Assembly (NCBI GenBank): GCA_963709585.1
Contig: CAVPXI010000013.1
Span: forward strand, 1-64,000
Direction of reading: 5' to 3'
DNA length: 64,000 bases
Source: Candidatus Dormiibacterota bacterium
GTDB taxonomy: Bacteria > Chloroflexota > Dormibacteria > Aeolococcales > Aeolococcaceae
Position numbers and translations under genes: made by a program. Below, piece after piece: positions 11,578 through 59,550 of the stretch; the first letter of the stretch is position 1; every line of letters starts with the position of its first letter. The notes under the pieces were generated by a model. The model was not told the DNA's origin. It worked only from the letters and a program-made list of their open reading frames with translations, and searched no databases.

Positions 11578-11913
11578 AAACTGTAGGCGCTTTGCAAGCG
11601 CTGGGGCGTCATGATCCGATGCAATGAGCAGCGGAATACCTCCGTGACCATCGGGAATGATGCCTTTTGAAAGGTCCTTATTCCCGGTTGGAATACTCGA
11701 CCACGCAACGCCCAGCCGCACCACACACACCGCGAAACCGCTAGTTTCTTACTCGCATCCGCGTTCGTCGGGGAGAGGACTCGAACCTGCGACCCCTGAT
11801 CCCCCAGACCAGTACTTATTTCAGTTCAAGGGCTGAGTACGAGTTAGAGTGTTTTCGTGGGGAATTGGTTGGAATGACGACTAGTTCAGGTGCGATGGAA
11901 TCCATTGCAATTC
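11578..11913 (-). repeat. att-like repeat copy 1: left arm, 3' half of tRNA-Pro(GGG) (11768-11812; 2-nt deletion and 1 substitution), conserved right flank
   Basis: Reverse complement reads CTGGT-CTGGGGG-ATCAG...GGTTCGAGTCC...CCCCGA; flank ends GGAATTGGTTGGAATGACGACTAG as in the other copies; left arm aligns with 15027-15219. Confidence 0.9.
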
Positions 11914-11956
11914 CGGGCTCTGCGCCCGCCACTTGGCACGGACGGCAGGCGTAAAT

Positions 11957-12334
11957 TCACGCCTCCGCGATGACGCTGATCGACACCCGCATACCCGGCA
12001 CATCAACGGGCAGCTTCGCGCCTTGTCGAGCTGGTGGGTCGATGGGGAACCACGACTGCCACTCCTCGTTCATTCCAGCGAAGTCCTCGGGGTCCCGAAG
12101 GATGAAGGTCGCGCTGACCACCCTTTCGAGCGAGCTGTCTGCCGCAGAGAGTATCGCGGAGAGGTTTCCGAGACATTGGCGCGTCTGCTCTTGGATGGTA
12201 GTCCCGACCAGCTGTCCGGTCGCCGGGTCGAAGGCCGCCTGGCCGGACACAAACAGCAGTCCGGCGGCCTTCACTGCCTGGCTATAGAAGGCGGATTTCG
12301 GGGCCGCATCGGTCTTGACGGAATCTCTGGACAT
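11957..12334 (-). CDS. RidA/YjgF/UK114 family protein
   Basis: YSQAVKAAGLLFVSGQ...FAGMNEEW...PPAR. Confidence 0.9.
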   Translation of the reverse strand: MSRDSVKTDAAPKSAFYSQAVKAAGLLFVSGQAAFDPATGQLVGTTIQEQTRQCLGNLSAILSAADSSLERVVSATFILRDPEDFAGMNEEWQSWFPIDPPARQGAKLPVDVPGMRVSISVIAEA

Positions 12335-12456
12335 CTCGTCTCCTTCACGGACTTGCTGATGATCAAGGCGAAACCGGGGTGGAAGCGTTTTTTTCGAGAC
12401 CGAGATCGCCTCGAGCGTCGCGCGTATAGAAATGCAACTCGTCAGCAGACTGCACG

Positions 12457-13650
12457 TCAGCCTCCGACCACGGACTCGATCTGCTCTGCGGAGTACACGT
12501 CGTCGACCGGGATCATGCCGCCGAGCGCCCCGATAATCCGCGTCACTGCCTCGGGTCGTTGCGACGCAGCCTCGTAATAGCGTCGCAGGTGAGCTGGTAG
12601 GGGCTTGAGAGCCGCCGCGCTCAGGGTCAGGCGGAATCCACTCGCTGTCGCGTCATCGCGGCGCCGCTGGTAGTTGATGAGTGCCTCCGTCCACGGGCGA
12701 GTCCCGACGAGTGCCGAGTCGGCGGCCGCGGCCAGCATCTCCGCGGACGCGAACGCGTCCGACATGCCTAACCCGGTCGTCGGGTCCTTGTAGTGACCCG
12801 CATCGCCGGCAAGCGCCCAACCGTTGCCGTAGGACTTGCGGTAGAAGTTGGCAAGATCGCTCGCGCCTCGGAATCGCTCCTCGCGGCGTCCGGATGCGAT
12901 CTCATCGTGCAGACCGGGGATCGCCTCGAGCGACTTCATGAAATTCCCCTCGATGTCGCGCCGGAACTCGGCGAACTCTGCCTGGCGTCCGCCCACGTAG
13001 ACGCAGGTCAGGTCACCATTGGTCGGCCAGCGCAGAATCAGCCGGCCGGGGCGCATGTGATAGGTCGGCGATCGGGTAGGAACGCCGCTCCAATACGAGT
13101 AGTACACAAAGGTCAGCGGCGGCTCCAGCACGTACGGCTCAGCGCCGGCCTCCGCGGCGATCACCGAATGGCGTCCATCCGCGCCCACAACGAGGCGAGC
13201 ATCGATACGCCTGGCAGCACTGGACGATGGTTTGATATCGACACCGCAGGCGTGCCCATCAGACCACCTCAGCGATCGCACAGACGTGCGGTCGAAGAGT
13301 TCTACCCCCACCTCGAGAGCCGCACCAACCAGCATGCTGTCGAGTACGGTCCGCCGAGGGCAGAAAGCTGCGCTCACTTCTCGAACCGACGGTACCTGGC
13401 CAGTGAGCGAAACTGAGCCGAAGTCAAACGTCAGCGACGGGATCGGTTGGCAGCCACGTGATTGGAGGCGGTCGAGCAGCCCCCAGGACTCCAGCAGCGC
13501 GGCACCGTGCGGCCACAAAAAGTGGCTCGAGATGGTGTCGCTCGGGAACTCGGCTCTGTCGACCAGCGCGACGCGGTGACCGCGCCGCGCCAGGAGCATC
13601 GCGAGTGACGCTCCGGCGCAGCGCGCTCCCACGACGACGACGTCGTACAT
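12457..13650 (-). CDS. FAD-dependent oxidoreductase (geranylgeranyl reductase/monooxygenase-like)
   Basis: YDVVVVGARCAGAS, VVGADGRHS, LAGDAGHYKDPTTGLG. Confidence 0.9.
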   Translation of the reverse strand: MYDVVVVGARCAGASLAMLLARRGHRVALVDRAEFPSDTISSHFLWPHGAALLESWGLLDRLQSRGCQPIPSLTFDFGSVSLTGQVPSVREVSAAFCPRRTVLDSMLVGAALEVGVELFDRTSVRSLRWSDGHACGVDIKPSSSAARRIDARLVVGADGRHSVIAAEAGAEPYVLEPPLTFVYYSYWSGVPTRSPTYHMRPGRLILRWPTNGDLTCVYVGGRQAEFAEFRRDIEGNFMKSLEAIPGLHDEIASGRREERFRGASDLANFYRKSYGNGWALAGDAGHYKDPTTGLGMSDAFASAEMLAAAADSALVGTRPWTEALINYQRRRDDATASGFRLTLSAAALKPLPAHLRRYYEAASQRPEAVTRIIGALGGMIPVDDVYSAEQIESVVGG

Positions 13651-13675
13651 CGTCGGTCAGCCCAGGGCGGAGGGG

Positions 13676-13903
13676 TTAGCCGACGGGTTGACCAGCCGCG
13701 AGCGCCTTGACGTCGGCCGTCGTGAGGGGATTGCCGGCGATTCCCCAGTCCCCACTTTTGACCTCCTCAACGATGACCCACGTCACCGGACGCAACGCCT
13801 CGCCCTCGATCTCCACCATCGTATCCGTGAGCCTGCGGACGATGTCGCGCTTCTGGCTCTCATTGAACACTCCCTCGATCAGCTTGACGTTCACCAAGGG
13901 CAT
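13676..13903 (-). CDS. 4-oxalocrotonate tautomerase family protein
   Basis: N-terminal Pro (MPLVNVKL), VIVEEVKSGDWGIAG; AAGGAGGT RBS. Confidence 0.92.
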   Translation of the reverse strand: MPLVNVKLIEGVFNESQKRDIVRRLTDTMVEIEGEALRPVTWVIVEEVKSGDWGIAGNPLTTADVKALAAGQPVG

Positions 13904-13920
13904 CGTGGCCACCTCCTTGA

Positions 13921-13980
13921 ATAGCACGACCGATCGGTCGTTTGTTGTGGTGAGGACCATAACACGACCGTTCGTGCTAT
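13921..13980. promoter_or_regulatory. Paired palindromic operators between tautomerase and TetR genes
   Basis: Perfect palindrome ACGACCGATCGGTCGT at 13926-13941; imperfect ATAACACGACCGTTCGTGCTAT at 13959-13980. Confidence 0.7.
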
Positions 13981-13991
13981 ACAAGTCCCTG

Positions 13992-14648
13992 ATGCCATTA
14001 CAGACCACCCGCGGCCTCGCCACCAGGCAAGGAATCCTGGAGGCTGCGACGGCCATCGCGAGCGTGGAGGGTCTCGAGGGCCTGACGCTTGGTCGACTCG
14101 CCGCCGACCTCTCGATGAGCAAGAGCGGCCTCTTCGCCCACTTCGGCTCCAAGGAGGACCTGCAGCTGGCGACGATCGAACATGCCCGGCAGATCTATGT
14201 TGACCAGGTGATCCTTCCGGGCCTGGCCCACGCGCCCGGTATCGCGACGCTCTACCAACTCTGTGATCGGTACCTCGCCCTCATGGAGCGGCGAGCCTTC
14301 CCCGGTGGGTGCTTCTTTGCCGCGGCGATGGCGGAGTTCGACGCGCGGCCAGGTGTCGTACGCGACACGATCGCGATGTTGCAACGCCAGTGGCTGGACC
14401 TGCTCGAACGGGCAGCCCGGGACGGAGTGCGCCTCGGCGAGCTGAATCGCGGCGTCGATTCGGTCCAGCTCGGCTTCGAACTTGAGGCCGCGATGCTCTC
14501 CGCCAACTGGTACTTCCACCTCTACAGTGATGCCCGGTTCTTCGTGCTATCCCGGGCCGCCGTACAACGCACGCTGAGAGCGGCGGCTACGTCGAAGGGT
14601 CGACGCATGCTGGAGGGTACGGAAGAGGTGGTTACGCAGGGGCGCTGA
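13992..14648 (+). CDS. TetR/AcrR family regulator
   Basis: LTLGRLAADLSMSKSGLFAHFGSKEDL HTH; FPGGCFF. Confidence 0.92.
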   Translation: MPLQTTRGLATRQGILEAATAIASVEGLEGLTLGRLAADLSMSKSGLFAHFGSKEDLQLATIEHARQIYVDQVILPGLAHAPGIATLYQLCDRYLALMERRAFPGGCFFAAAMAEFDARPGVVRDTIAMLQRQWLDLLERAARDGVRLGELNRGVDSVQLGFELEAAMLSANWYFHLYSDARFFVLSRAAVQRTLRAAATSKGRRMLEGTEEVVTQGR

Positions 14649-14715
14649 GAGGGCGTTGCTGCGGGTTAGGCGCCCGGTTCAGGGGCGGACCGAACGTAGG
14701 CGGAGCCGGTCGCGC

Positions 14716-14955
14716 TCAGTCGTGGGTGTTCTGCGTCGCGCGGATTGCTCGCGAGAAGCGGTAGGCGCCGTAGAACGCCCAGACGGCTCCTAGTATCAGG
14801 GGCACGAAGCGCACCCAGCCACCAACGCCGAAGGCAATCAGGCAGATGGCGAGGGCGACCAGGACAATGCCGTCAACGATGCCAATGACAGCGATTGCCC
14901 GCGGGTGCCGGCGCTTCCATGGACCCAGCATCTTCACCAACTGTGTGTCGTTCAT
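14716..14955 (-). CDS. Small two-TM membrane protein
   Basis: GGAGGAG RBS, ATG at 14955, two hydrophobic stretches. Confidence 0.65.
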   Translation of the reverse strand: MNDTQLVKMLGPWKRRHPRAIAVIGIVDGIVLVALAICLIAFGVGGWVRFVPLILGAVWAFYGAYRFSRAIRATQNTHD

Positions 14956-15026
14956 AGCTCCTCCATTCTGAGCGCGTTGTGCGACGGCTAAGCGGGCTCG
15001 CTGTCGCCGTCTGTGGCGACGCCGCA

Positions 15027-15338
15027 AAACTGTAAGCGCCATGTATGCGCTGGACTGCCACAATCTCTTGCTATGAGCAGCGGCATCCGGCCTCAACCAT
15101 GGGATTGATGCCTTTTGCAGGAAAAGTACTCATTCCCGGTTAGAGCATTACACCCCGTCCGCCGACAGGCGCCCAACGCACCGCACAACCGCTCGTCGCG
15201 AACTCAAGTCGGGCGTCCGTCGGGGAGACAGGACTCGAACCTGCGACCCCTGGTCCCCCAGACCAGCACTTATTTCCCGATGCGGGCTGAGTTCGACTTT
15301 GAGTGCTTTCGTCGGGAAAGGGTTGGAATGACGACTAG
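15027..15338 (-). repeat. att-like repeat copy 2: left arm, intact 3' half of tRNA-Pro(GGG) (15220-15266), conserved flank
   Basis: Reverse complement CTGGT-CTGGGGG-ACCAG-GGGTC-GCAGG-TTCGAGT-CCTGT-CTCCCCG-A; D-arm and 5' acceptor strand absent. Confidence 0.92.
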
Positions 15339-15487
15339 AACCCGTAACTTCAACCTTGGGAAGGTGCCGGTACGTTGCTGAATTCAGGCGTACCCGACAA
15401 CGGACATTTGCTGGTCCCTGTTACCCTTTGGAGCCCTTACGCTGGTTCACTCATATCGACCTGAGGGACGTCCCTGTTGATGCGACA

Positions 15488-15558
15488 GGGCCTAACGTCA
15501 TCTCTTGGTAGTGAGTAAGTACCCCACTCAGCGCTGGTGTGCTGGTGACACTCGGCAC
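15488..15558. promoter_or_regulatory. DevR/DosR-box-like sites upstream of flavodoxin gene
   Basis: GGGCCTAACGTCAT (15488) and GTGACACTCGGCAC (15545) versus the DevR core GGGACTWWAGTCCC. Confidence 0.55.
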
Positions 15559-15607
15559 TTGGCTCGCGATACGCGCCCGGCACAAGATTGGCGCGGAGGT
15601 AAGAACC

Positions 15608-16154
15608 ATGACGACACTCGTCGGGTACGCAAGCCGATACGACGCGAACTCGGGGAATCGCTGAGAGAATTGCCGACACGCTGGCGTCGCTTGGACACCC
15701 AGCGCAGGCGCGACCACTCCAGGCGGTCGGCGATCTCGCCAGATACGACGCCTATGTTATTGGCAGCGCTGCCTATATGGGGTCCTGGCTCAGGGAGGCC
15801 AGGGAGTTCGTGCGGATCAACCAGAAGTTGTTGGCCACGCGCCCCGTATGGCTATTCAGCAGTGGGCCGCTCGGCACTGCAACCACGGATGCGAAAGGGC
15901 GCGACGTGCTGGCAACCTCGGAGCCGAAGGAATTCGCCGAATTTCGCGAGGCCGTGAGCCCGCGTGCGACTCGGGTGTTCTTCGGAGCGCTGAATCCGCG
16001 CAAGCTGAGCTTCTCACATCGAGCGGCCCAACTCATTCCGGCTGCGCGGGTGCTCATGCCGGAAGGCGATTTTCGGAACTGGGCGGACATCGATGCATGG
16101 GCCACTAGCATCGCTTCGGAGTTGACCGAAGTGTTGGAGCCGGCGCTCACTTAG
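15608..16154 (+). CDS. Flavodoxin-domain protein (HemG-like; frameshift at 15646-15651)
   Basis: MTTLVGYASRYDA/TRGIAERIA...YDAYVIGSAAYMGSW...VWLFSSGPLG...GDFRNW; GGAGG RBS. Confidence 0.88.
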
Positions 16155-16274
16155 CAGCTATTCCAGAAGATCACGCTCGGGGTTTGCCGGGCTGGCACCG
16201 CCTCGCATGGATTCATCGACCAGCAAATCGGTCTTTCTGGGTTTCCGGGATCCGGCTGCCGACGCATCTGGTGG

Positions 16275-17702
16275 CTAGCGCACGTCAATCGGCTCAAACC
16301 GCGCAGTGAAGTGGCGCAGCGCGGGCGGTTCATCGACGATCCGATATCCGGGAAGGTCGGCGGCGCGCGATGCCACATCCTCGCACGCTGCAACGACGTA
16401 GTCGATGTGGCTCTGTGTGTAGGTCCGCCGCGGGATCGCCAGCCGAACGAGGTCCATATCCGCAGCCCGCTCCGAACCGTCGGGTTGCCGCCCGAACATC
16501 ACCGTGCCTATCTCGCAACTGCGGATCCCACCCGTCTCATACAGAGCGACTGCCAGCGCCTGACCCGGATAGTGCAAAGGATCGATGTGCCGTAGCAGCG
16601 CCCGTGCGTCGATGTAGATCGCGTGACCGCCTGGAGGCTGAATGATCGGGATGTCAAAGTGAGTCAGTGCCTCACCGAGATACGCGGTCGAGCGGATCCG
16701 GTAGCGCAGGTAGTCGTGCTGCACCACCTCGTGCAGGCCCTGGGCGATTGCCTCGAGGTCACGACCGGCCAGACCACCATATGTTGGGAACCCCTCCGTG
16801 AGGATGAGCAGGTTGCGACATTGCACAGCGAGCTCATCGTCATTCATCGCAAGCCAGCCGCCGATATTGGCGAGCCCGTCCTTCTTGGCACTCATCGTCA
16901 TGCCATCGACGAGGCTCGCCATTTCGCGGACGATGTCGCGCACCTCACGATCCTGCTGCCCCGGCTCTCGTTCGCGAATGAACCAGGCGTTCTCCGCGAA
17001 CCGGCACGCGTCGAGAAACAACGGAACACCATACTGGTCGCACACCTGACGCACCGCGCGCAGGTTCGCAAGCGAGACCGGTTGCCCGCCTCCCGAATTG
17101 TTCGTGACGGTGACGAATACGACCGGCACCGACCCCTCGCGGGCGGCAAGGAACGCTTCCAGCCGCTCAACGTCCATGTTGCCCTTGAAAGGATGCAACG
17201 CGGAGGGATCGTGCCCTTCACGCGCGGGCAGGTCCACCGCAAGTGCGCCCGTGAACTCGACATTGGCACGTGTGGTGTCAAAGTGGGTGTTGTTCGGTAC
17301 GCTCTTGCCCGGACCGCCGATGGCGGTGAAGAGGATCTTTTCGGCGGCTCTACCCTGGTGCGTTGGGATGATATGCCGGAAGGGGAAGAGGTCCTGGACC
17401 GCATCGAGGAAACGAAACCATGAAGGAGAGCCCGCGTAGCTCTCGTCACCGTGCTGCACGGCCGCCCACTGGTCGCGTGACATCGCGCCGGTGCCTGAGT
17501 TGGTGAGCAGGTCGATAAGGACGTCATCGGAATGCAGGGCGAAAAGGTTGTAACCGGCTGCCGCGATGGCGCCCCGTCGCTCCTCTTCCGTGGTCATTCG
17601 CAGTGGCTCCACGGAGTGGATGCGGAATGGTTCGATGATTGTGTCGAACTCTCGGGGCGGCAGCACGCGCGCAAACTCCCGCTCACGCACGGCACTCACC
17701 AC
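16275..17702 (-). CDS. tnaA: Tryptophanase (beta-eliminating lyase; tyrosine phenol-lyase not excluded)
   Basis: EPFRIHSVEP, GDESYAGS, THQGRAAE, FDTTRAN, MSAKKD (PLP Lys), EGFPTYGG, LRHFTARF. Confidence 0.88.
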   Translation of the reverse strand: MVSAVREREFARVLPPREFDTIIEPFRIHSVEPLRMTTEEERRGAIAAAGYNLFALHSDDVLIDLLTNSGTGAMSRDQWAAVQHGDESYAGSPSWFRFLDAVQDLFPFRHIIPTHQGRAAEKILFTAIGGPGKSVPNNTHFDTTRANVEFTGALAVDLPAREGHDPSALHPFKGNMDVERLEAFLAAREGSVPVVFVTVTNNSGGGQPVSLANLRAVRQVCDQYGVPLFLDACRFAENAWFIREREPGQQDREVRDIVREMASLVDGMTMSAKKDGLANIGGWLAMNDDELAVQCRNLLILTEGFPTYGGLAGRDLEAIAQGLHEVVQHDYLRYRIRSTAYLGEALTHFDIPIIQPPGGHAIYIDARALLRHIDPLHYPGQALAVALYETGGIRSCEIGTVMFGRQPDGSERAADMDLVRLAIPRRTYTQSHIDYVVAACEDVASRAADLPGYRIVDEPPALRHFTARFEPIDVR

Positions 17703-17974
17703 ACTTGAGACCGGCGAAGTTCATCGCGACCCCACACAAGTGTCGGCACGTCGGGCACGAGCTCGAGGAGCCGGAGGGCCTGCCCAGCGTTACTGCTGAG
17801 ATGCACCGGACTGTCGACTGCCTGGTCGACGTCGGGAATCACTCCGTCGTGCCAACGGCGGTAGCGATCCTGTGCTCGCCGTCGCTCCCAGAGCGCCATG
17901 AGCGCCTCATACGCACGTCCATTCCAGTGCACGCAGTGGCCCGCCAGCGCCACACGGGAGCCGGTAGAGATCAA
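17696..17974 (-). pseudogene. Fragment of a conserved actinobacterial-type hypothetical protein
   Basis: NGRAYEAL...WHDGVIPDVDQAVDSP...VPTLVWGRDEL recalled from longer proteins; appears truncated. Confidence 0.45.
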
Positions 17975-18081
17975 TCGACGAGCGGACGCCGGCTGCCGCG
18001 GTCACTTGACCTCGCATCGTCACTTCCATCCCGATCTTCAACCCCGTTCGACTGTTGCGGGTAGCCCTTCGAGCCTGGGTC

Positions 18082-18312
18082 TCAGGGAGCGTCCTGGGCA
18101 AGCGTCAACGGGCAGCGCCCAGGCGCCATCTTCGTCACTGTGAGCGAGATCTCGTGATCCGAAAGGCCCCCCACGCCGATCAGGTGCAACCCGGCGCAGA
18201 TGTATGGCGGTTTGTCGCTCACCGGACAGCGGCCATCGGATGTCGGACCGCTGCACTGTTCCAGCACCTGGTCAGTCGACGGGTCGAGCATCACATACGT
18301 TTGGCGATCCAT
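18082..18312 (-). CDS. Small four-Cys protein (paralog of 36603..36851)
   Basis: DPST...CSGPTSDGRC...C.G...CPL pattern shared with the paralog; DevR-like boxes directly upstream. Confidence 0.7.
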   Translation of the reverse strand: MDRQTYVMLDPSTDQVLEQCSGPTSDGRCPVSDKPPYICAGLHLIGVGGLSDHEISLTVTKMAPGRCPLTLAQDAP

Positions 18313-18347
18313 TTGAGAAGCATGTCGCTCGCTATGAACTGCGGCTA

Positions 18348-18383
18348 GTGCCGAAGGTCTCTCATGCGAGTGCCATTGGTCCC
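18348..18383. promoter_or_regulatory. Tandem DevR-box-like pair
   Basis: GTGCCGAAGGTCTC (18348) and GTGCCATTGGTCCC (18370), 22 bp apart. Confidence 0.65.
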
Positions 18384-18513
18384 AAGACACGCCGGATCGT
18401 GCAAGTTGAGGAATCGGCGCAACGGTCCAGTGCCCACCGGCTTCGTGTTCGTCGACCTAATCAAGCCCGTTTCGGACGAGTGGCCAGGGTGGTGTCGCGA
18501 GCAGGCAACTCTG

Positions 18514-18909: not shown

Positions 18910-18991
18910 CTTCGATGCGGTCCTGGCTTCTTTAGCAGGGGTCCGCATCATCCGCAACGAACCTGGCCGGCGGGTACGTCTCGGGGGTCGG

Positions 18992-19897: not shown

Positions 19898-20068
19898 GAC
19901 CAGTGCTGCGCGTCGCCTTCCCCGGCGGCGGTTTGGCCATGAACGCGGCGACCCGGCGCGGCGGGAAAAGGAAGCGCGTAAGCCACGCACGCAGAGGCAT
20001 TTGTCCCCCAGATTCGAGCCAAGATGCTCTATCCAAGCTGGGCGGCGTGGACGGATCGTAGACGCGCG

Positions 20069-21476: not shown

Positions 21477-21491
21477 GCCGAATCTCGCCTT

Positions 21492-23236: not shown

Positions 23237-24277
<1,041 letters not shown>

Positions 24278-50806: not shown

Positions 50807-50868
50807 CCCTGAAGTGCGCCCGAGCCTCGCACCTTCCCCAATCCGCAAGCTCTTTGCGGACCTGAGCA

Positions 50869-52535: not shown

Positions 52536-52772
52536 CTACGGCCGTTGACGGCCCTCCACCATCGCCCGAATAATGCCCACGACGTTGCCAAGCTCCCAGA
52601 GAGCAAGGGCACCCCAGGCCGCGCGACGCGACATCCGCTCGGCCTTGACGGCGCGTGCTATGAAGACGCCTGCCGCCGAGGAAGCCGCCGCGACCCACGC
52701 CCCCGCAAGGCGAAGGTGATGCGCGATGAAGGTCGCTGCGGCGAGCCACCGTGATGTCATTGGAGCATCCAT
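52536..52772 (-). CDS. Small hydrophobic hypothetical protein
   Basis: AGGAGGT RBS before ATG at 52772; no family recognised. Confidence 0.45.
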   Translation of the reverse strand: MDAPMTSRWLAAATFIAHHLRLAGAWVAAASSAAGVFIARAVKAERMSRRAAWGALALWELGNVVGIIRAMVEGRQRP

Positions 52773-52968
52773 CGTGTGCACCTCCTGTCGTTGTTGCGCG
52801 GCCTCCCGATTACCCACCGCCGCATCCGGTCGCACCACGGCTAGTCGGACCGCCCCCACGGTGGGGTGAGACGCAAGCTCTCGACATCTTTCGGGCAGAT
52901 CAGGCTGGTGCAAGAACGCCACAGCAAATACGACCCGTCCGTTCGCACCGAGGAGCCGGTCGACAGAG

Positions 52969-53580
52969 CTACCGAATCAGTTCTAGCACGCCGGCTGCGA
53001 CCTCATCGATATGATCGCCGGTCCGATCCGACCAAGTCTGCCTCGGCGTAGGCGCGGTTCGTTGATCCCGTCCAATGGCGCCGATTGCTTCGAAGTGCAT
53101 CGCCAAAGGAATCAACGCAAAGGGACGCCGTGCTTTGTGGCTCAACTCGTGAGCAACACTCCCGAGGAAGAGATCCTCCATCGTGCTGTGTTGCCCATTG
53201 CCGACCACGATGAGGTCTGCGTCCTCGGTGTCGGCGACGTGCAATATCCCTGTTGCTGGATGCCCTTCGACAACGACGATCCGATGCTTGACGTCCTTGC
53301 TGGTCAGGGGCCCAAACAACTCCTTCTTGACATGAGATCGCACATCGTCGCCCAGGTAGTCGAACTCCCGCAGGCGAACGTCCGTCACTGTCGTACCGCC
53401 AGAGGCGCCGATAGGCTTCAGCACATGCACCGCGATGATCTCGGCGCCGCGGGATGCTGCCTCCTGGATTGCCCATTCGAGTGCGGCGTCCGATGCCGCC
53501 GACCCATTCACTCCCACAACGATCTTCTGCGTGCTCACAACGTCCGCCTTGGCATTTGAGGATTGTTCGCTCAGGGTCAT
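52969..53580 (-). CDS. Universal stress protein
   Basis: KIVVGVNGS...ADLIVVG...LGSVAHEL; DevR-like box GAGGCGTTGGTCCC at 53608. Confidence 0.88.
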   Translation of the reverse strand: MTLSEQSSNAKADVVSTQKIVVGVNGSAASDAALEWAIQEAASRGAEIIAVHVLKPIGASGGTTVTDVRLREFDYLGDDVRSHVKKELFGPLTSKDVKHRIVVVEGHPATGILHVADTEDADLIVVGNGQHSTMEDLFLGSVAHELSHKARRPFALIPLAMHFEAIGAIGRDQRTAPTPRQTWSDRTGDHIDEVAAGVLELIR

Positions 53581-53809
53581 CTAATCGCCAGGTCGGAGGC
53601 CTGTCAAGAGGCGTTGGTCCCGACTTATCATCACGCCTGCCGTGTCGCGCCGCGATGGCTGGCCCGCTCCGCACGCCCTCGACCGGCTGCGCCAGCTGCG
53701 GCAATGCAGCGGCATCCTCACCGAGACACCGATTGGGCTCCGCAAACGAGGGCCTTCGTACTCATCCAAGCCTCCGGCGGCCACGCCGTCGCGCGTGCCT
53801 GACCTGCCG

Positions 53810-53991
53810 CTGTCCCGCACATTACGAGCCAGTAATGTCCGAGCGGCAGCGGGGACGATGTCGGCCGGATCCGCCGTCGCAACCGGGGATGACTTCAGCT
53901 CTCCAACGACCTCGGCATCCACGCGCTTGCCGATGAAGTCCGTGGCCGAAATGATGCCGACGAGGGCTCCGTCGATCCCGATCACCGGCAT
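53810..53991 (-). pseudogene. CBS-domain gene fragment
   Basis: MPVIGIDGALVGIISATD...PVATADP...AAARTL. Confidence 0.6.
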
Positions 53992-53998
53992 GGCGACC

Positions 53999-55282
53999 TC
54001 ACACGCCCTTTGGCGCCGACGCAAAACGTGACTGTGCTTCGCGGAGCGGGTCGGGGATGCGGCCGCCGAGTCGAAGCAGGACGGCTCCGGCCACCACCGC
54101 GGCAAGCGCGCCACCCCACCAGACGGCGTCTGGCGAGGTCTGCAGGAGCAGGCCACCAATCGCCGGGCCGAGGGCCAGGGAGATGCTGAAGGTCAGGCTG
54201 TAGACAGACAGGTAGCGGCCGAGCAGATGGGCTGGGGCCATGTCCGCGACCAGTGGCCCGAGAACGACAATGTGTACGCATTCACCGATTGCGAAGACGA
54301 TCGCAACGCCGGCGAGGAGACTGGTCGCAGCGAGCTCCGAGTGGATGAGCGTCGCTGGCAGCACCGCGAGCAGGCTGACCGCAAAAAGCGCGCTGGCCGC
54401 CGCGAAGGCGTGTGTGCGTTCCATCCGTGCCACGACGCGCACTGCCGGGATCTGCGCGATGACGACGAAGCACGTGTTGACGAGGACGAGGATCCCGATC
54501 GCGGCGGGGCCGAGCGATGTGTGGGTCTTTGCAAATGGCGGCAGGATGTTGGAGAAGAACGTGTGGCCGACGACGACGAGCACGATATTGGCTGCGATCA
54601 CAGTGAGGAACAGCCGATCTCGAGCGACGGCGCGAAAGCCGGTTCCGTTGGCGTCTGTCACTGTGACGGTCTCGGCTCGCGGGTTCGGTACGGCAGCGAG
54701 CACGATCAGCGCGAATCCGGCGTAGGTGACGGCGTCGAAGAAATAGAGCGTTTGGAACGAGCTGAGCTGCTGTGCGGATGCGATGACGAAGCCGGCTGCG
54801 GTCGCGCCGGCGCCGAGACCGAAGTTGCCCGCGACGCGATTGAGCGCGAAGGCTGCCGCTCGCTGATCGCGCTTGACCAACCTGATGGTCAATTGCCGGT
54901 TGGCCGTCCCTGCCGCGCCGATTCCGGCTCCGCTGACAATCGAGCAGGCAAAGGCCTGCCAGGGACGGTCTACGTAGGCGAAGCCGGCGTAGCCTAGGGC
55001 GCTCGCCAGGCTTCCTGCGACCACGATCGCTTTAGCGGAGTGCCGGTCGAGCAGCGCTCCCGTCGGCAGGGTGGCGATTGCGGCTGTCCCCATGGTCGCC
55101 GCGAGAACCAGTCCGGCTATTGACGTCGAAAAGCCACGTATCTGGTGCAGATAGATGATCTCAAAGGGAAGAATGAGCCCGTAACCGAAGTAGTTGAGGG
55201 CGTTTCCCGCTTGAAGAATGAGCACGGGGCGAGAGAGCCCGGTGCGCCAACCCGCGATGAAGTGTGAGACGCCGCGGTTCAT
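53999..55282 (-). CDS. MFS transporter
   Basis: About 12 TM segments; GALLDRHS motif-A-like; APAHLLGRY. Confidence 0.9.
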   Translation of the reverse strand: MNRGVSHFIAGWRTGLSRPVLILQAGNALNYFGYGLILPFEIIYLHQIRGFSTSIAGLVLAATMGTAAIATLPTGALLDRHSAKAIVVAGSLASALGYAGFAYVDRPWQAFACSIVSGAGIGAAGTANRQLTIRLVKRDQRAAAFALNRVAGNFGLGAGATAAGFVIASAQQLSSFQTLYFFDAVTYAGFALIVLAAVPNPRAETVTVTDANGTGFRAVARDRLFLTVIAANIVLVVVGHTFFSNILPPFAKTHTSLGPAAIGILVLVNTCFVVIAQIPAVRVVARMERTHAFAAASALFAVSLLAVLPATLIHSELAATSLLAGVAIVFAIGECVHIVVLGPLVADMAPAHLLGRYLSVYSLTFSISLALGPAIGGLLLQTSPDAVWWGGALAAVVAGAVLLRLGGRIPDPLREAQSRFASAPKGV

Positions 55283-55361
55283 CCGCCTATAGGCCTCGCC
55301 GCGGGCCGAATCGCCGCGACGGGAAGCGCCTCAGGCACTGCCGCCGCGATACCGTTAACTC

Positions 55362-56297
55362 ATGCGGCCGACGGTACGAGGCGCCGATGCTGACCGTCTT
55401 GAACGATCCTGCGGCCGACGCTCGGACTCGATCAGGTTCGGACCTGGCGCTTACGGCGTCGAGCGCGCAGAGGTCTACATCTCGACGCGCGGCTTCGATC
55501 CGCACCGGCACGGCACTTACGGGATCGGCGTCACGACGGCCGGCGTGCAGGTATTTCGTTACCGCGGCTCGCAACGTGTCTGCCTGCCCGGTCAGCTGCA
55601 CGTCCTGCATCCCGACGAGACGCACGACGGCGGCCCGGGAACCGAGGACGGCTTCGGTTACCGGATCCTCTACATCGCGCCCGAGCTCGTCCGGGGCGCC
55701 CTAGGTGGTCGCGCGCTACCGTTCGTCGCCGATCCCGTCCAGGAGCCGAAGCCGACGGCTCGACCCATCGTTGCCCTGCTCGCCGACATCGACGACCCGA
55801 TCAGCGAGCTGAGCTGCGCCGAGATCGCGGTGGCGGTCGCCGACTGCCTCCTGTCGCTCGGTGACTGCCCCGACCGCCACCGAGCCACGGTCGACATCAG
55901 GGCAGTCGAGCTCGTACGCGAGTATCTCGCGGCCCATGCACGGGAGCAGACGCCGGCGTCGACTCTCGAAAAGATCGCGGGCACCGACCGCTTCACGATC
56001 ACCCGCCACTTCCGATGGGCGTTCGGGACAAGCCCCGACCGCTACCGGACGCTGCGCCGCCTGGCGCTCGCGCAAGCCGCGATCGAGAGCGGGCAGTCAC
56101 TCGCGCAAGTCGCTGCCGAGGCGGGTTTCGCCGACCAGAGCCACATGACGCGACACTTCAAGCGGACCTACGGATTGACGCCGACCCGGTGGAGGGCCCT
56201 CACAGCCGCCTCGTCGACTGAACGTCTCGAGACCAATGGCCACCTGCCACAGTCGCGGTCTTTGCGGCTAACGTCCGCCGAGAGTCGCGCGATTTAG
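55362..56297 (+). CDS. AraC family regulator
   Basis: FDPHRH, LHPDETHDG, AAEAGFADQSHMTRHFKRTYGLTP. Confidence 0.92.
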   Translation: MRPTVRGADADRLERSCGRRSDSIRFGPGAYGVERAEVYISTRGFDPHRHGTYGIGVTTAGVQVFRYRGSQRVCLPGQLHVLHPDETHDGGPGTEDGFGYRILYIAPELVRGALGGRALPFVADPVQEPKPTARPIVALLADIDDPISELSCAEIAVAVADCLLSLGDCPDRHRATVDIRAVELVREYLAAHAREQTPASTLEKIAGTDRFTITRHFRWAFGTSPDRYRTLRRLALAQAAIESGQSLAQVAAEAGFADQSHMTRHFKRTYGLTPTRWRALTAASSTERLETNGHLPQSRSLRLTSAESRAI

Positions 56298-56550
56298 AGT
56301 GGTTTTGCAGGAAAGAACATCAATCAGGGAATGAGTACTAGTCCCTGCAAAGTGACCGATCCCCGCAAGTTGGAATCCACTACAGCGCAATGGTCTGCGA
56401 ATCGGGGAGACAGGACTCGAACCTGCGACCCCTGGTCCCCCAGACTAGTACTCATTTCCCGATGAGTGCTGAGTTCGATTTAGAGTGGTTTTGTGGGGAA
56501 TTGGTTGGAATGACGACTAGAGCGCGTGTGATGGAATCCGCTGGAATCGC
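56290..56550 (-). repeat. att-like repeat copy 3: 3' half of tRNA-Pro(GGG) (56402-56448), conserved flank, rearranged left arm
   Basis: Core near-identical to copy 4; 18-bp direct repeat 56290-56307/56476-56493; inverted GGGAATGAGTACTAG to the left. Confidence 0.92.
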
Positions 56551-56646
56551 CGAGAATCCCTCAGCGCTCTTCGACAGAGACCATCGCCTATCCCCTTGAG
56601 CCTCCAGCCTTTCCCAGGACGGATCACCGCTTAGCAAACGTGTCAG

Positions 56647-56742
56647 TCAAACCGGGGCACGCCCCCTGGCCCTGACCACCTTCCACCCGCCCTCATGCAA
56701 CCAGTGATGACGGTGGCAGAGGAGTACCAGGTTAGCCAGCAT
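56647..56742 (-). pseudogene. HNH endonuclease C-terminal remnant (DUF222/REP13E12-like)
   Basis: Hand translation: NLVLLCHRHHWLHEGGWKVVR. Confidence 0.65.
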
Positions 56743-56960
56743 CGCCCTCATACGCCGTAGATGGCGATGTGCTTCGCCTGCATAACACCAACCAACAACT
56801 CTCCCGCTCTCAGGTCGAGGATGCGGCGAGAAGGAAGGGCATCGCCAGCCCGTTCGATCTCCGCAACCTCAGGGGAAGCTCATAGTTGTCGCTTGCACTC
56901 TGCCAGCTGCTCGAAGCTGGGTTCGCGTTTGCACTGTCCCGAATGCTCTGAGCGGGGGGG

Positions 56961-57629
56961 TCACGACAGACGGCGTTCCGTGGCCCAGCGCGTGAGCTGA
57001 TGCCGCGTCGAGAGCTGGAGCTTGCGCAGCACCGACGAGACGTGGCTCTCCACCGTCTTCGCGGAGATGAACAGCTCCCGGGCGATTTCCTTGTACGTGA
57101 AACCGCGCGCGATGAGACGGAGAACCTCGCGTTCGCGGGGTGTCAGCTGGTCGAGCTCGGAGTCGAACGACGGTCGCTCCTGATCGGCGGCGGGCAATGC
57201 CGCGAAGGCGTCGAGCACGAAACCGGCGAGCCGCGGCGAGAAGACCGCCTCACCATCGGCCACCCGGTACACCGCATCGACGAGGTCGGCGCCGGAAATC
57301 GTCTTGGTCACGTAGCCGCGCGCGCCGGCGCGGATGATGGCGATCACATCCTCAGGCGCGTCCGACGCGGAGAGCGCGAGGAAACGGACCTGCGGGTTGG
57401 AGGCCTTCAGTGCGGTCACCACGGCGTGCCCGCCGCCCCCTGGGAGATGCACGTCGAGCACGACCACGTCAGGTTCGCTCTGCGCGATCGCTGTGATAGC
57501 CGGTTCAACGTCGTCCGCCTCGCCGATCACCTCCACCTGGTCGCCGAGCTCGGCGCGTACGCCCGATCGGAACAGGCCGTGGTCGTCGACGATGAAGACA
57601 CGGGGCCGGCGGCCACGCGAGACGCTCAC
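56961..57629 (-). CDS. NarL/LuxR response regulator
   Basis: VDDHGLFRSG, LDVHLP, LTPREREVL, ISAKTVESHVSSVLRKL. Confidence 0.93.
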   Translation of the reverse strand: MSVSRGRRPRVFIVDDHGLFRSGVRAELGDQVEVIGEADDVEPAITAIAQSEPDVVVLDVHLPGGGGHAVVTALKASNPQVRFLALSASDAPEDVIAIIRAGARGYVTKTISGADLVDAVYRVADGEAVFSPRLAGFVLDAFAALPAADQERPSFDSELDQLTPREREVLRLIARGFTYKEIARELFISAKTVESHVSSVLRKLQLSTRHQLTRWATERRLS

Positions 57630-58885
57630 GCAGGCGCCGGCTGGCTCACCGCGGCTGAGCGGGGCATCGATAAGCGGACCTCGGTGCCCTCGCCGGGAGC
57701 GCTCCGAACCTCAGCGCTGCCGCCACGGCGGAGCATCCTGGCGTGGACAGACTCGGACAAGCCCTTGCGGTCCGCGGAGACTGCGGCTGGATCGAACCCT
57801 CGGCCGCGGTCGCGGATGAACACAGACACCTGGCCCGCCTCCACCTCGGCGTAGAGCGAGATGGCCCGCGCCTCGGACCACTTCGCCGCGTTGACCGTCG
57901 CCTCGCGAGCGGCGGCGAGCAGCGCCTTGAGGTCGTCATCGAGCGGGCAGTCCCCGACGCTCACCACTTCGACGGCGACCCCGTGTTGAGCCTCGACGTC
58001 GCTCTGGATCAGGCGCACACCGGCAGCGAACGTGGTGTCAGAGGCGATCGATCCGGGCGCGCGCCCGTCGAAGAGCCAGGAGCGCAATTCGCGCTCCTGG
58101 GCACGCGCAAGCTGGATCACCTGTTGGGGTTCGGTGGCCCGGCGCTGGATCAGCGCGAGTGTCTGGAGCACCGAGTCGTGGGCGCGCGACGCCATGTCAG
58201 CGCGTTCCTCGGCGCGGATACGGGCCTGACGCTCGGCGACGAGCTCACGCCCGACGCGCAACCACCATGGTCCCAGGACGACCACGATCGCGGCGATGAC
58301 CAATGCCACGCCGGCGAGCGGACGGAGCAGTGCCGTCGTCGTGTGCCCGATCAGCAACGTGGTCACGCCGGCAATCAGCAGGACAGCCGCAATCAGCGCG
58401 CGGAGCGCGATTCGCGAGCGGCGCGTGTCACCGGTAAAGCCGATCAAGGGATCGGCAAGACGCCGCAAGGTCATCTGCTCGTAGGCGGGAGCGTTTCTCG
58501 AGATCAGGACAATCGCGATGACGCTGATCACGAATGACCAGGCGAGCGAGCCGATCCACCCGGCGCCGACCAGCGACAACAGCACGAAGAGCGCCGTGAC
58601 CAGCGATGCGAGCCCCGCGGCGAGGGTGATCCCGGTGCGGTCGGCCAGCGCCGCGCTGCCGATGCTAGTCCGCTCCCCTATCGCCGGAATGAGCAGCCAG
58701 GCCGCCAGATAGCAGGCGATCCCGAAGCCTCCGGCCAACGCGAGGACCACGAAGACCGTCCGCACGATCGTGACATCGACTCCGATCCTCGCCGAGACGC
58801 CGGCAGCGACGCCACCGAGACGGCGCTGTTCGGGGAGGCGACGCCAGGAGCCTTTCCGTCGCTTGGCCTGGGTCTGCTCCGCCAT
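57626..58885 (-). CDS. PspC-domain membrane sensor histidine kinase
   Basis: LGGVAAG PspC N-terminus; HDSVLQTLALIQ, EATVNAAK, DRGRGF. Confidence 0.9.
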   Translation of the reverse strand: MAEQTQAKRRKGSWRRLPEQRRLGGVAAGVSARIGVDVTIVRTVFVVLALAGGFGIACYLAAWLLIPAIGERTSIGSAALADRTGITLAAGLASLVTALFVLLSLVGAGWIGSLAWSFVISVIAIVLISRNAPAYEQMTLRRLADPLIGFTGDTRRSRIALRALIAAVLLIAGVTTLLIGHTTTALLRPLAGVALVIAAIVVVLGPWWLRVGRELVAERQARIRAEERADMASRAHDSVLQTLALIQRRATEPQQVIQLARAQERELRSWLFDGRAPGSIASDTTFAAGVRLIQSDVEAQHGVAVEVVSVGDCPLDDDLKALLAAAREATVNAAKWSEARAISLYAEVEAGQVSVFIRDRGRGFDPAAVSADRKGLSESVHARMLRRGGSAEVRSAPGEGTEVRLSMPRSAAVSQPAPA

Positions 58886-58920
58886 GTCCCCATCATGGGC
58901 CTCGCCAGCCTACGGGACCA

Positions 58921-58979
58921 TCGGGGAAGACCCTGAAGCGCTGACGGGCGTCTCAGGGTTGAATCCGGGATCCCACGGA
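58921..58979. promoter_or_regulatory. Palindromic sites between PspC kinase and PspC gene
   Basis: TCGGGG-AAGA-CCCTGA (58921-58936), TCAGGG half-site (58953), TCCGGG-ATCC-CACGGA (58964-58979). Confidence 0.5.
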
Positions 58980-59014
58980 TTGTTCTGTAGCACCGGCGGC
59001 TCTACGGTGGGGTC

Positions 59015-59275
59015 ATGAACACACCCACCTCGACCCAGCGCCACCTCCACCGCCCCACCGACGATCGGATGATCGCGGGCGTCGCCGCCGGCATTGCCGA
59101 GTACTTCGATGTTGATGTCACGATCGTCCGGATCGCGATCGCGGTCTTCTCGGTGTTCGGCGGCGCGGGCATCGCTCTGTACATCGCCGGCTGGCTGCTG
59201 ATGCCGACTGAGGGCTCGGATCGGTCCATCGCGAACAAGCTCACCCGGACAGCCCGGCACTGCACGCAGTCATGA
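59015..59275 (+). CDS. PspC domain protein
   Basis: LHRPTDDRMIAGVAAGIAEYFDVDVTIVR...YIAGWLLMP. Confidence 0.9.
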   Translation: MNTPTSTQRHLHRPTDDRMIAGVAAGIAEYFDVDVTIVRIAIAVFSVFGGAGIALYIAGWLLMPTEGSDRSIANKLTRTARHCTQS

Positions 59276-59396
59276 GCGCGTGATCCCACCACCGGTGACC
59301 CTATCCCCACTGCGGCTCCTACCCTGACTTGTGGAACTGCTGGACCCCGCTCAGCGCTGCCCGACGATGGTGATCCTCGCGAGAACGCAAATTGCA

Positions 59397-59550
59397 CGTC
59401 CGTCGGGGAGACAGGACTCGAACCTGCGACCCCTGGTCCCCCAGACTAGTACTCATTTCCCGATGAGTGCTGAGTTCGATTTAGATTGCTTTTGTCGGGA
59501 ATTGGTTGGAATGACGACTAGCGCGCATATTGGAATCAAGTGGAATCGCA
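59397..59550 (-). repeat. att-like repeat copy 4: 3' half of tRNA-Pro(GGG) (59403-59449) and conserved flank
   Basis: Near-identical to copy 3 across ~119 bp; CGTCCG trailer shared with copy 2. Confidence 0.92.

Follow-up and report, generated by a model that had tools for sequence, protein, structure and literature searches.

Repeat Copies and Modules in the Window

The window analyzed here, the whole 64,000-nucleotide stretch, comes from a soil bacterium in Dormibacterota, a phylum without cultured members, and contains four co-oriented copies of the 3′ part of tRNA-Pro(GGG), as the sequence-only reading had proposed. The copies start at 11768, 15220, 56402, and 59403, and their spacings of 3452, 41182, and 3001 bp agree with the module sizes of ~3.4, ~41, and ~3 kb given in that reading. 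All four belong to a larger series of 16 on the contig of the window (C13). The 16-mer TTGGAATGACGACTAG occurs exactly four times in the window (11869, 15323, 56505, and 59506, all on the + strand) against an expectation of 0.03, and four or more occurrences were reached in 0 of 100 shuffles. The aligned copies share an invariant block running from TCGGGGAG... to ...CCCCCAGAC, which is followed by a common flank. Comparison with the intact gene by blast identifies the block as the reverse complement of tRNA-Pro(GGG) positions ~23/24–75; thus, it extends from the D-stem/anticodon-stem border to the discriminator, close to the anticodon stem at which the earlier reading had placed its start. According to ARAGORN, the window lacks a complete tRNA, and the sole Rfam match is a D-arm-less tRNA (29.2 bits) at 15220-15279 in copy 2. 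The features are as follows, with the strand given where one was assigned.

9775-11577: GGDEF-EAL gene; left-arm-like sequence begins right after its stop
11578..11767: diverged sequence resembling a left arm, on the chromosomal, outer flank of copy 1; class-A-like in alignment
11768..11915, − strand: copy 1, tRNA-Pro(GGG) 3′ part (with a 2-nt deletion) and right arm of M1 (16-mer, alignment)
11916..15004: cargo of module M1 (Pfam), including a 79-aa ORF and the next three genes
11957-12334, − strand: RidA/L-PSP
12457-13650, − strand: FAD monooxygenase
13773-14648, + strand: TetR regulator
15005..15219: class A left arm of M1, ~215 bp (alignment)
15220..15338, − strand: copy 2, tRNA-Pro 3′ part and right arm truncated after TTGGAATGACGACTAG
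15335..15365, − strand: 3′ piece of a tRNA-Gly(CCC), truncated and joined to the shortened right arm of copy 2
15366..56277: cargo of module M2 (41 kb; Pfam), without recombinase; tryptophanase-like lyase, cupredoxin, aldehyde dehydrogenase, GAPDH, 2-oxoacid:ferredoxin oxidoreductase, NiFe hydrogenase and its protease, malic enzyme, Usp proteins, cytochrome b, LuxR-type response regulator, a 1212-aa GAF-kinase/GNAT/CoA-ligase-like fusion, ABC transporter, MFS, and AraC
56278..56401: class B left arm of M2
56402..56550, − strand: copy 3, tRNA-Pro 3′ part and full right arm, with GGAAT at +95, +105, +131, and +141
56551..59402: cargo of module M3, whose left arm is recognizable over ~30 bp only
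56961-57629, − strand: LuxR-type response regulator of M3
57626-58885, − strand: PspC-domain histidine kinase of M3
59015-59275, + strand: PspC protein of M3
59403..59550, − strand: copy 4, tRNA-Pro 3′ part and full right arm
59551..64000: start of module M4 (which continues to C13:66126, past the window end), with metallo-beta-lactamase fold, TetR, YCII, and glyoxalase genes in the window

None of the 71 window ORFs, called with our own script, has a recombinase match in Pfam. The proposal that each module is functionally coherent holds for M1 and M3 but not for the 41-kb M2, which carries a mixed set of energy-metabolism, stress, and regulator genes. Within M1, the segment 12456-14659 is 97.6% identical to C13:124226-126430. 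Both boundaries of this 2.2-kb duplicate lie inside modules, and some rearrangement has therefore not been bounded by att sites.

Anatomy of the Junctions

Each copy consists of ~52 nt of the tRNA 3′ part joined to a right arm with phased GGAAT motifs. A common flank of ~72 bp had been described on each copy from the sequence; the common flank stands, but its length does not, as the conserved right arm runs to ~115 nt in most copies. The earlier description was also confined to the right flank, whereas a conserved left arm of at least 105 bp is retained at most copies. Among the 20 full copies in the assembly, mean pairwise identity falls from 96% in the tRNA part to 79% across the right arm and to 60% beyond it. 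The GGAAT motif is present at a density of 2.95 per 122-bp right arm, compared with a genome expectation of 0.13, and keeps the fixed offsets of +95, +105, +131, and +141. These motifs may be protein-binding arm sites. However, the integrase described below has ~30 residues before its core-binding domain, so that the classical arm-binding domain may be missing.

The left arms fall into classes. The class A arm (~215 bp, roughly 90% identical) is common to 10 junctions, namely nine half copies and the intact tRNA on C13, and the cargo next to these junctions is unrelated. Three sister-family genomes, compared with this arm as a possible native flank of the tRNA, match across the tRNA itself only. 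The ~215-bp arm matches no RNA family in Rfam, and a small ORF within it was rejected as coding on account of a 1-nt deletion in the conserved stretch of one copy. Left arms of this assembly (G000) resemble the integrase-bearing arms of two congeners, G019 and G008, until ~13 bp upstream of the integrase ATG.

Several junctions are altered. Core substitutions are found at copies 11768, 145370, 148956, and C14:56565 (C14 being the second array contig), M3 is nearly without a left arm, and the right arm of copy 2 is truncated and fused to the tRNA-Gly fragment. The outermost junction is 75.6% identical to its G019 orthologue, compared with 89% for the neighboring genes, and thus shows no sign of constraint.

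The Array and Its tRNA Anchor

The 20 full copies in the assembly all lie on the + strand, 16 on C13 and four on C14, and each series terminates in an intact tRNA-Pro(GGG) gene with der behind it. On C13, the intact gene is found at c[211509-211583], 147 kb to the right of the window, and 12 further co-oriented copies occupy the interval. This agrees with the earlier proposal that one element family had inserted repeatedly at a tRNA-Pro gene beyond the right end of the window. The arrays extend over ~200 kb on C13 and ~72 kb on C14. The terminal tRNA and der fragment of C13 may run on into C14:1, which would make one array of at least 284 kb, or may derive from a co-occurring congener. In the whole assembly, tRNA-Pro(GGG) is represented by 21 genomic fragments and any other tRNA by at most four. 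All 22 repeat matches are co-oriented on the + strand and confined to the two contigs, each series being tRNA-ended, and are not scattered in random orientation.

Modules range from 1.8 to 41 kb, with their own regulators and with genes on both strands. Module identity between C13 and C14 is mosaic, with values of 89%, 94%, and 97% in adjacent segments. Next to the tRNA of C13 lies an extra integrase-less module of 12.6 kb, which separates the tRNA from a module that shares 97% identity with the one next to the tRNA on C14.

The claim that the modules encode no recombinase was borne out in both arrays. A six-frame search with PF00589 returned 11 matches genome-wide, none of them on C13 or in C14:1-72 kb, and Pfam detected neither tyrosine nor serine recombinases among 237 ORFs of C13 and 78 ORFs of C14:1-71.7 kb. 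With tblastn (E ≤ 1), the cognate integrase or its remnants gave no match on C13 or on C14:1-90 kb, and 0 of the 20 junctions carry an integrase remnant. The absence of the integrase holds for the assembled DNA of an assembly that is 88.8% complete, and unassembled DNA could carry one.

Cognate Integrase and Conjugative Element in Related Genomes

A Xer-like tyrosine integrase of 332 aa fits these sites; its matches to the XerA and integron-integrase models are weak and sub-threshold. Orthologues of at least 87% identity are found in eight of 41 other genomes of the genus, one in each, and none in this assembly; the tRNA linked to the array is present here, and the cognate integrase in relatives. 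At seven of nine integrase loci, the intact tRNA lies 123 bp upstream of the integrase start. Relative to the tRNA, the gene is positioned on the side of the array; in G008 it is part of a ~90-kb conjugative element whose two ends are the tRNA and an att copy at a distance of 90.6 kb. This element encodes the integrase (P0002), a TraA-type relaxase, a TraG/VirB4-like P-loop ATPase, ParA/ParB, SSB, and ArdC; the relaxase match is TraA_Ti-like (1.3e-98), under the curated cut-off. By its gene content, the element qualifies as an ICE, with integrase, relaxase, and coupling/T4SS ATPase between att sites. Small ORFs beside the G008 integrase, considered as excisionase candidates, have no Pfam or NCBIfam match.

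The G008 genome carries both the occupied and the empty site, with flanks that are 98.9–99.2% identical. The two sequences diverge directly after ...CCCCCAGAC, which places the crossover within the anticodon loop or on its 3′ side, consistent with the anticodon-loop crossover suggested from the sequence of the window. At its distal end, the G008 ICE carries the same right arm as the G000 copies. The ICE itself is absent from G000, where contig C8 holds only a 75.6% identical relaxase region beside tRNA-Gly(GCC), together with an integrase 30% identical to the integrase P0001.

Arrays Across the Genus

The repeat was found in all 24 genomes of the genus that were searched, with 2–14 matches each, and one of these genomes is a single-contig chromosome. 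In the sister family, 15 of 16 genomes are positive, and among the matches listed each spans the tRNA part only. The closed genome G019 has five integrase-less modules between its sole integrase-bearing module and the tRNA. It also contains one integrase remnant (residues 8–52) beside a degenerate copy, which indicates that decay of integrase-bearing modules does occur. Homologous blocks are permuted in order between G000 and G019, and window positions 21093-50663 in M2 are ~90% identical to, and colinear with, a G019 block adjoining tRNA-Phe. Module content and order are not fixed among relatives, as both vary between species.

Proposed Origin of the Array

The modules keep att sites but are without recombination and transfer genes and are therefore CIME-like by definition. 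We consider the best explanation of the locus to be a site-specific accretion array of integrase-less CIME-like islands at tRNA-Pro(GGG), served by a mobile integrase, and assign this reading a probability of about 0.6. Modules would move without an integrase of their own, presumably by mobilization in trans; the extra 12.6-kb module of C13, the five tRNA-proximal modules of G019, and the permuted block order are indirect evidence for movement with, or by means of, an ICE. In the proposed mechanism, an ICE would integrate by crossing over within the anticodon loop or 3′ of it, displacing older modules outward. Each junction consists of the displaced tRNA 3′ part as the core, flanked by the right arm of one module and mostly by the left arm of its neighbor. 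The ICE integrase may also be able to recombine any pair of junctions, in which case integrase-less modules could be deposited, re-ordered, or carried off with the ICE, being mobilized in cis or in trans alongside it. Since the integrase is absent from the G000 assembly, the array there would currently be frozen.

A further-reaching proposal, offered tentatively and with more doubt than confidence, is that the junctions are maintained recombination sites. The arrays would then form a genus-wide, ICE-serviced cassette system, or "macro-integron" with a mobile integrase, in which self-regulated modules of 1.8–41 kb are cut out, shuffled, and passed between Dormibacterota species and reach islands at tRNA-Gly(CCC) and tRNA-Phe, with one Xer-like integrase acting on composite attP-like junctions.

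It may instead be that the modules arrived as autonomous integrase-bearing islands or ICEs and lost the integrase later, leaving a fossil array in which integrase-less modules were never mobile as such. Such three-step decay is the standard account of CIME formation (PMC5704250), and Tycheposon islands are described with fragmented integrases and scattered partial tRNAs (10.1101/2020.12.28.424599). The N-terminal integrase remnant beside the degenerate copy in G019, the damage to several G000 junctions, and an outermost junction that diverged faster than its flanking genes point in the same direction. However, the absence of remnants from the 20 G000 junctions contrasts with a ~105-bp arm that is mostly kept to ~13 bp from the would-be ATG. 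Each orthologue-bearing genome has a single integrase match at the 87% level, as opposed to up to 14 repeat matches per genome, and the class A arm has been retained at its 10 junctions despite unrelated cargo. We regard decay as the principal history of the array as unlikely. It could also be that the main force that built and reshuffled the array was not an integrase but unequal crossing-over, with gene conversion, between the ~0.3-kb repeats. The repeats are long enough to serve as substrate, and the mosaic C13/C14 identity, the 97.6% internal duplicate, and the block order permuted relative to G019 are compatible with such events. Yet homologous recombination offers no source for the unrelated cargo or for the first junctions, the occupied and empty sites of G008 represent site-specific insertion at an exact site, and strict co-orientation with a tRNA anchor is an integrase signature; as the main force, it is improbable.

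The earlier suggestion of integron-like cassettes draws on a layout of co-oriented cargo units without recombinases, and the weak matches of the integrase to the XerA and integron-integrase models would suit it. It would require a resident integrase beside a fixed site that captures promoterless cassettes through folded attC-like sites. The integrase is instead missing from 33 of 41 congeners and from G000 and, where present, lies on the mobile side of the tRNA, in G008 within the ICE. Single-stranded folds of two junctions, computed for both strands, are no better than those of shuffles (z from −0.1 to −1.5). With multi-gene modules that have genes on both strands and their own regulators, and with neither a resident integrase nor attC-like hairpins, the suggestion is not supported as it stood, and we consider an integron-like platform very improbable. 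A tRNA-derived MITE- or SINE-like repeat, or an assembly artefact, would account for a short unit with a tRNA-like fold at its start whose depth in soil metagenome contigs is 10–40 times that of its surroundings. The single orientation of 22 of 22 copies and their confinement to two tRNA-ended stretches refute a dispersed repeat, and the occurrence of arrays in 24 of 24 congeners searched, including the single-contig chromosome, leaves the artefact hardly credible.

In public Logan contigs, at most 0.23 of the sampled words are contained. In short contigs of four runs from soil metagenomes, the att copies are 10–40 times deeper than the modules and have many alternative flanks. One joint, 59442 -> 56379 (going back 3064), is found in one contig with 47 letters on its shorter side; it falls between two repeat copies and is thus indistinguishable from a junction in another organism. 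Neither circles nor vacated sites of integrase-less modules were seen in these short pieces.

Comparison With Known Systems

The array is a variant of the known accretion/CIME type, unusual in scale. CIMEs and their site-specific accretion with ICEs are described for the ICESt1/ICESt3-related elements of Streptococcus thermophilus and for other streptococci (PMC5704250). As in those accounts, the modules keep attL and attR without integration and transfer genes, stand next to an ICE in a tandem arrangement at a gene 3′ end (there of a tRNA or protein gene), and are proposed to move with the ICE or via its integrase (PMC5704250). The att sites of a CIME should resemble those of an ICE or IME, and in G000 both the core and the ~105-bp left arm can be aligned to the integrase-bearing arms in G019 and G008; the G000 modules likewise lack integration and conjugation genes. 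In contrast to the published cases considered, which describe two or three partners (PMC5704250), 16 modules stand in tandem on C13 and four on C14. The Dormibacterota arrays also differ in being genus-wide in an uncultured phylum, where they are known here from sequence alone.

Like the tRNA islands cataloged by Islander and TIGER, the array has an intact tDNA and co-oriented 3′ fragments at island ends, an anticodon-centered att class, and a tyrosine integrase (PMC4383910, PMC12424338). The tDNA and 3′ fragments of the Islander definition are present, 16 of the latter on C13, but the integrase inside each island is not. Islander reports tandems of three or more only four times in 2168 genomes (PMC4383910). 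As described, both pipelines demand an integrase per island; integrase-less arrays are consequently filtered out, and a 200-kb integrase-less stack is invisible to them (PMC4383910, PMC12424338). The Prochlorococcus islands built by Tycheposons offer another parallel in their repeated integration at one tRNA, with a partial tRNA as the sole separator of neighbors, the inward displacement of older elements by newer ones, adaptive cargo, and scattered remnants (10.1101/2020.12.28.424599). Tycheposons are, however, defined by their own integrase and by replication or packaging modules (10.1101/2020.12.28.424599), which G000 modules do not have. The proposed driver here is instead an ICE with a relaxase and T4SS-type ATPase, and full arms are retained by modules that have no integrase. 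The ssrA-linked tandem islands of Dehalococcoides share a single-copy small-RNA gene target and a Chloroflexota-related lineage with the present array, although the target gene differs (PMC3146451).

The array differs from integrons in having no resident intI at the insertion site, tRNA-derived duplex att sites with arms in place of attC hairpins, and multi-gene, self-regulated units. What integron arrays have in common with it is the arrangement of co-oriented, recombinase-less cargo units between recombination sites, handled by one tyrosine recombinase.

Implications for Dormibacterota

A literature search returned no paper joining Dormibacter, genomic island, and integrase. The array carries hydrogenase, 2-oxoacid:ferredoxin oxidoreductase, stress, and regulator genes in a phylum known from metagenomes alone. 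If the junctions are maintained recombination sites, the array would represent 6–8% of the genome and much of its flexible pool of energy-metabolism and stress genes. Exchange of modules by one mobile integrase, if true, would explain the sharing of large metabolic gene sets among these slow-growing soil bacteria and would make the array a natural example of one integrase serving many large cargo units.

The tRNA-Pro(GGG) Repeat Array

The sequence-only reading described four co-oriented copies of the tRNA-Pro(GGG) 3′ half with a common flank in the window, and a 16-mer count, shuffles, an alignment, and blast all bear this out. The 16-mer closing the flank occurs there exactly four times (11869, 15323, 56505, and 59506, all on the + strand) against an expectation of 0.03, and none of 100 shuffles reached four. 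Aligned, the copies, spaced 3452, 41182, and 3001 bp apart, contain an invariant block, TCGGGGAG...CCCCCAGAC, followed by the common non-tRNA flank; blast of the intact gene identifies the block as the reverse complement of tRNA-Pro(GGG) positions ~23/24-75. No complete tRNA was called by ARAGORN in the window; Rfam identifies 15220-15279 (-) as a tRNA lacking the D arm, its 29.2 bits only just reaching the gathering score. Of the 7 acceptor positions, 5 pair with the opening bases of the flank (CGGGAAA). The repeat array is a real, non-chance feature, and we read it, with a probability of about 0.9, as site-specific accretion of integrase-less islands at tRNA-Pro(GGG).

In the whole assembly (GCA_963709585.1; 3.52 Mb, 24 contigs, 88.8% complete), there are 20 full-length copies, every one on the + strand, divided between the window's contig, C13, and a second contig, C14. 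Each series ends at an intact gene, which on C13 is the tRNA-Pro gene anticipated to the right of the window.

Copies and intact tRNA-Pro(GGG) genes
C13, 11768 to 198798, +, 16 copies
C13, c[211509-211583], intact tRNA-Pro(GGG), end of the C13 series
C14, 17964, 50391, 52359, and 56565, +, 4 copies
C14, c[71628-71703], intact tRNA-Pro(GGG), end of the C14 series

The C13 array extends over 199.8 kb in modules of 1.8 to 41.2 kb. In a census of tRNA fragments, tRNA-Pro(GGG) accounts for 21, and no other tRNA exceeds 4.

Next to the tRNA on C13 comes the C-terminal end of der/engA, to which the sequence beyond the C14 tRNA is 87% identical. One bin holds two intact tRNA-Pro(GGG)+der ends (C13:211509-212147 and C14:71628-72262). 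The C13 der fragment is 92% identical to those of the relatives G016 and G017 and 85% to that of G048, the nearest relative, to which the C14 fragment is 94% identical. No second copy of the C13 left flank was found in the assembly. C13 is possibly the contig of a co-occurring congener binned with this genome; alternatively, its tRNA+der piece may be internal and horizontally acquired, with C13 continuing into C14. The 16-copy array on a single contig is independent of which reading holds, though the 20 copies together may come from two genomes.

Fragments of a second tRNA, tRNA-Gly(CCC), lie co-oriented near module ends within the array, and in the copy at 15220 the truncated right arm is fused directly to one of them. 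These fragments suggest that modules passed through islands at other tRNAs. Small integrase-less islands also occur at two tRNAs on contig C15, which has no PF00589 match.

tRNA-Gly(CCC) sequences and islands at other tRNAs
Window 15335-15365, tRNA-Gly(CCC) 3′ fragment
C13:66433-66476, tRNA-Gly(CCC) 3′ fragment
C13:110903-110945, tRNA-Gly(CCC) 3′ fragment
C4:124614-124685, intact tRNA-Gly(CCC)
C15:33416-40732, island at tRNA-Pro(TGG) c[40658-40732], two 3′ fragments (33420 and 35480)
C15:156746-176086, island at tRNA-Phe(GAA) c[176011-176086], one 3′ fragment (156750)

Junction Anatomy and the Insertion Site

Across the 20 copies, mean pairwise identity is 96% from the tRNA 3′ end through the anticodon loop, 76% over the 9 nt that follow, 79% in the right arm as far as the 16-mer, and 60% beyond it. 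The ACCAGT of both intact genes is ACTAGT in many copies; since this change would unpair the anticodon stem, the position must stay with the element arm, placing the crossover 3′ of it. Right arms contain GGAAT 2.95 times per 122 bp, at fixed offsets of +95, +105, +131, and +141, and left arms 1.1 times per 130 bp, against a genome expectation of 0.13. We read these motifs as candidate protein-binding arm sites.

In most copies, a conserved left arm is kept across the core from the right arm. A ~215-bp arm (class A), in which mostly at least 90% of columns are conserved, is common to 10 junctions (nine half copies and the intact C13 tRNA), and a second type (class B) to five (four C13 half copies and the intact C14 tRNA). 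Past the common left arm, class A carries a ~100-bp extension (window 15005-15110, AAAACTGTAAGCGCTATGTATGCGC...) that is ~90% conserved in the 10 junctions and gave no Rfam match and no consistent ORF.

The relative G008 carries two versions of the locus. Its contig C1 runs der-tRNA-integrase-integrative element (ICE)-right arm-core before the contig ends, and its contig C3 runs array-left arm-core-tRNA-der. Between the two, identity is 99.2% on the der side (2.1 kb) and 98.9% on the array side (269 bp). Because these occupied and empty versions part directly after ...CCCCCAGAC, the ICE was inserted site-specifically at exactly that site.

The Cognate Integrase in Relatives

The repeat was found in all 24 genus genomes searched, each having 2-14 matches. 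Of 16 sister-family genomes, 15 also gave matches, and those listed are all confined to the tRNA part; the tally counts the unpublished G027 and G036. When five contiguous relatives were searched with PF00589, two matches lay next to the repeat: one at ~120 bp from the intact tRNA of G008, the other beside an internal half copy in G019. Both integrases (P0002 in G008 and P0001) have 332 aa, and they are 87% identical. NCBIfam returns only sub-threshold Xer-type matches, the best, to XerA/integron-integrase, scoring 101-105 bits where the cut-off is 220. Of 41 other genus genomes, 8 have an orthologue of at least 87% identity; the studied assembly has none, its best match being 30% identical. 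At seven of nine integrase loci in the species collection, the intact tRNA lies 123 bp upstream of the integrase start; the other two have a half copy and a partial core, respectively.

The G008 element, which spans the 90.6 kb between the tRNA and the next att copy, is an ICE encoding a TraA-type relaxase, a TraG/VirB4-like ATPase, ParA, ParB, SSB, ArdC, and RadC. It is absent from the studied assembly. A second ICE-like element lies beside tRNA-Gly(GCC) at C8:85872-91987; its relaxase region shares 75.6% DNA identity with the corresponding region of the G008 ICE, and the integrase shares 30% with P0001. The backbone is related, the target different.

Cargo of the Modules

The modules had been described as encoding no recombinase, and on C13 this held. 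A six-frame PF00589 search of the assembly gave 11 matches, none on C13 and a single one on C14, at 321 kb beside a tRNA-Gly. Pfam found no tyrosine or serine recombinase in all 237 script-called C13 ORFs (batches of 71, 30, and 136 at E<=1e-3, 1e-5, and 1e-8, respectively), nor in 78 ORFs of at least 60 aa in C14:1-71.7 kb (E<=1e-10). The only transposase-type genes in the C13 array belong to the IS110 family. The full gene makes up most of the 3.4-kb module between the copies at 145370 and 148956, and the fragment lies in the module after the copy at 129435. Array cargo is otherwise metabolic, regulatory, and stress-related.

IS110-family genes and window ORFs
C13:147132-148388, full IS110-family transposase
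C13:130913-131293, IS110-family transposase fragment
Window 40754-44392, +, 1212-aa ORF with two GAF, HisKA_3/HATPase, GNAT acetyltransferase, and CoA-binding/succinyl-CoA-ligase-like domains
Window 71-599, +, overlapping ORFs 71-406 and 381-599, matching consecutive parts of PF07929 (PRiA4_ORF3)

Judged by its domains, the 1212-aa ORF would be a putative fusion of a sensor kinase with a Pat-like protein acetyltransferase architecture. The two overlapping ORFs are probably one gene split by a frameshift.

Mobile Modules or Decayed Islands

The modules could be mere fossils of decayed islands, yet we somewhat favor their being serviced by the ICE integrase. A tblastn search with the integrase (E<=1) gave no match on C13 or C14:1-90 kb, and left arms in the assembly resemble the integrase-bearing arm up to ~13 bp before the integrase ATG. 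Over 5.3 kb, the tRNA-adjacent C14 module shares 97% identity with the module second in line from the tRNA on C13, where an extra 12.6-kb integrase-less module lies between the tRNA and the C14-like module; the first 3.3 kb of this extra module from the core are 91-94% identical to a differently neighbored G019 module. In the closed G019 chromosome, five integrase-less modules separate the sole integrase-bearing module from the tRNA, and blocks homologous to C13 modules 4, 5, 6, and 8 are ordered 6-4-5a-8-5b. The majority of modules are confined to one species. Module M3 (window 56551..59402) has matches in 28 of 41 congeners at only 70-79%, which, where located (G019 and G008), lie far from the tRNA-Pro array. 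Within module M2, window 21093-50663, encoding 2-oxoacid:ferredoxin oxidoreductase, NiFe hydrogenase, malic enzyme, and the sensor-kinase fusion, is ~90% identical to and colinear with G019:C1:2922219-2949639, compared with 83% identity in der-adjacent core DNA; the G019 block lies ~10 kb from tRNA-Phe(GAA), outside the G019 Pro array.

Mobility, on the other hand, is opposed by one integrase remnant in G019 beside a degenerate copy, by several damaged junctions in the studied assembly, and by the orthologous outermost junction, which is 75.6% identical between the assembly and G019 while its flanking genes are 89% identical. Two further points also speak against it. A 2.2-kb duplicate (FAD monooxygenase and TetR; window 12456-14659 and C13:124226-126430, 97.6% identical) is shared by the outermost module and module 9 with boundaries within the modules rather than at att copies. 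In the public data, which are short Logan contigs only, integrase-less modules showed neither circular nor empty forms.

Comparison With Known Systems

The suggestion that the modules may be integron-like cassettes finds no support: by the features tested the array is not an integron, and junction single strands fold no better than shuffles. The modules are CIME-like (cis-mobilizable elements) under the definition given in PMC5704250, in which att sites are kept and integration and transfer genes are absent. The process agrees with tandem accretion and with the model of tRNA islands, as outlined in PMC4383910, and island building resembles that described for tycheposons (10.1101/2020.12.28.424599). 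Islander, in the counts of PMC4383910, records tandems of at least three only four times in 2168 genomes, an integrase being required per island; against that scale, with its integrase requirement, 16 copies on one contig are unusual. Also unusual are the complete lack of integrase remnants in the studied assembly, the arms conserved on both sides, the occurrence of arrays in each of the genus genomes where the repeat was sought, and the host phylum.
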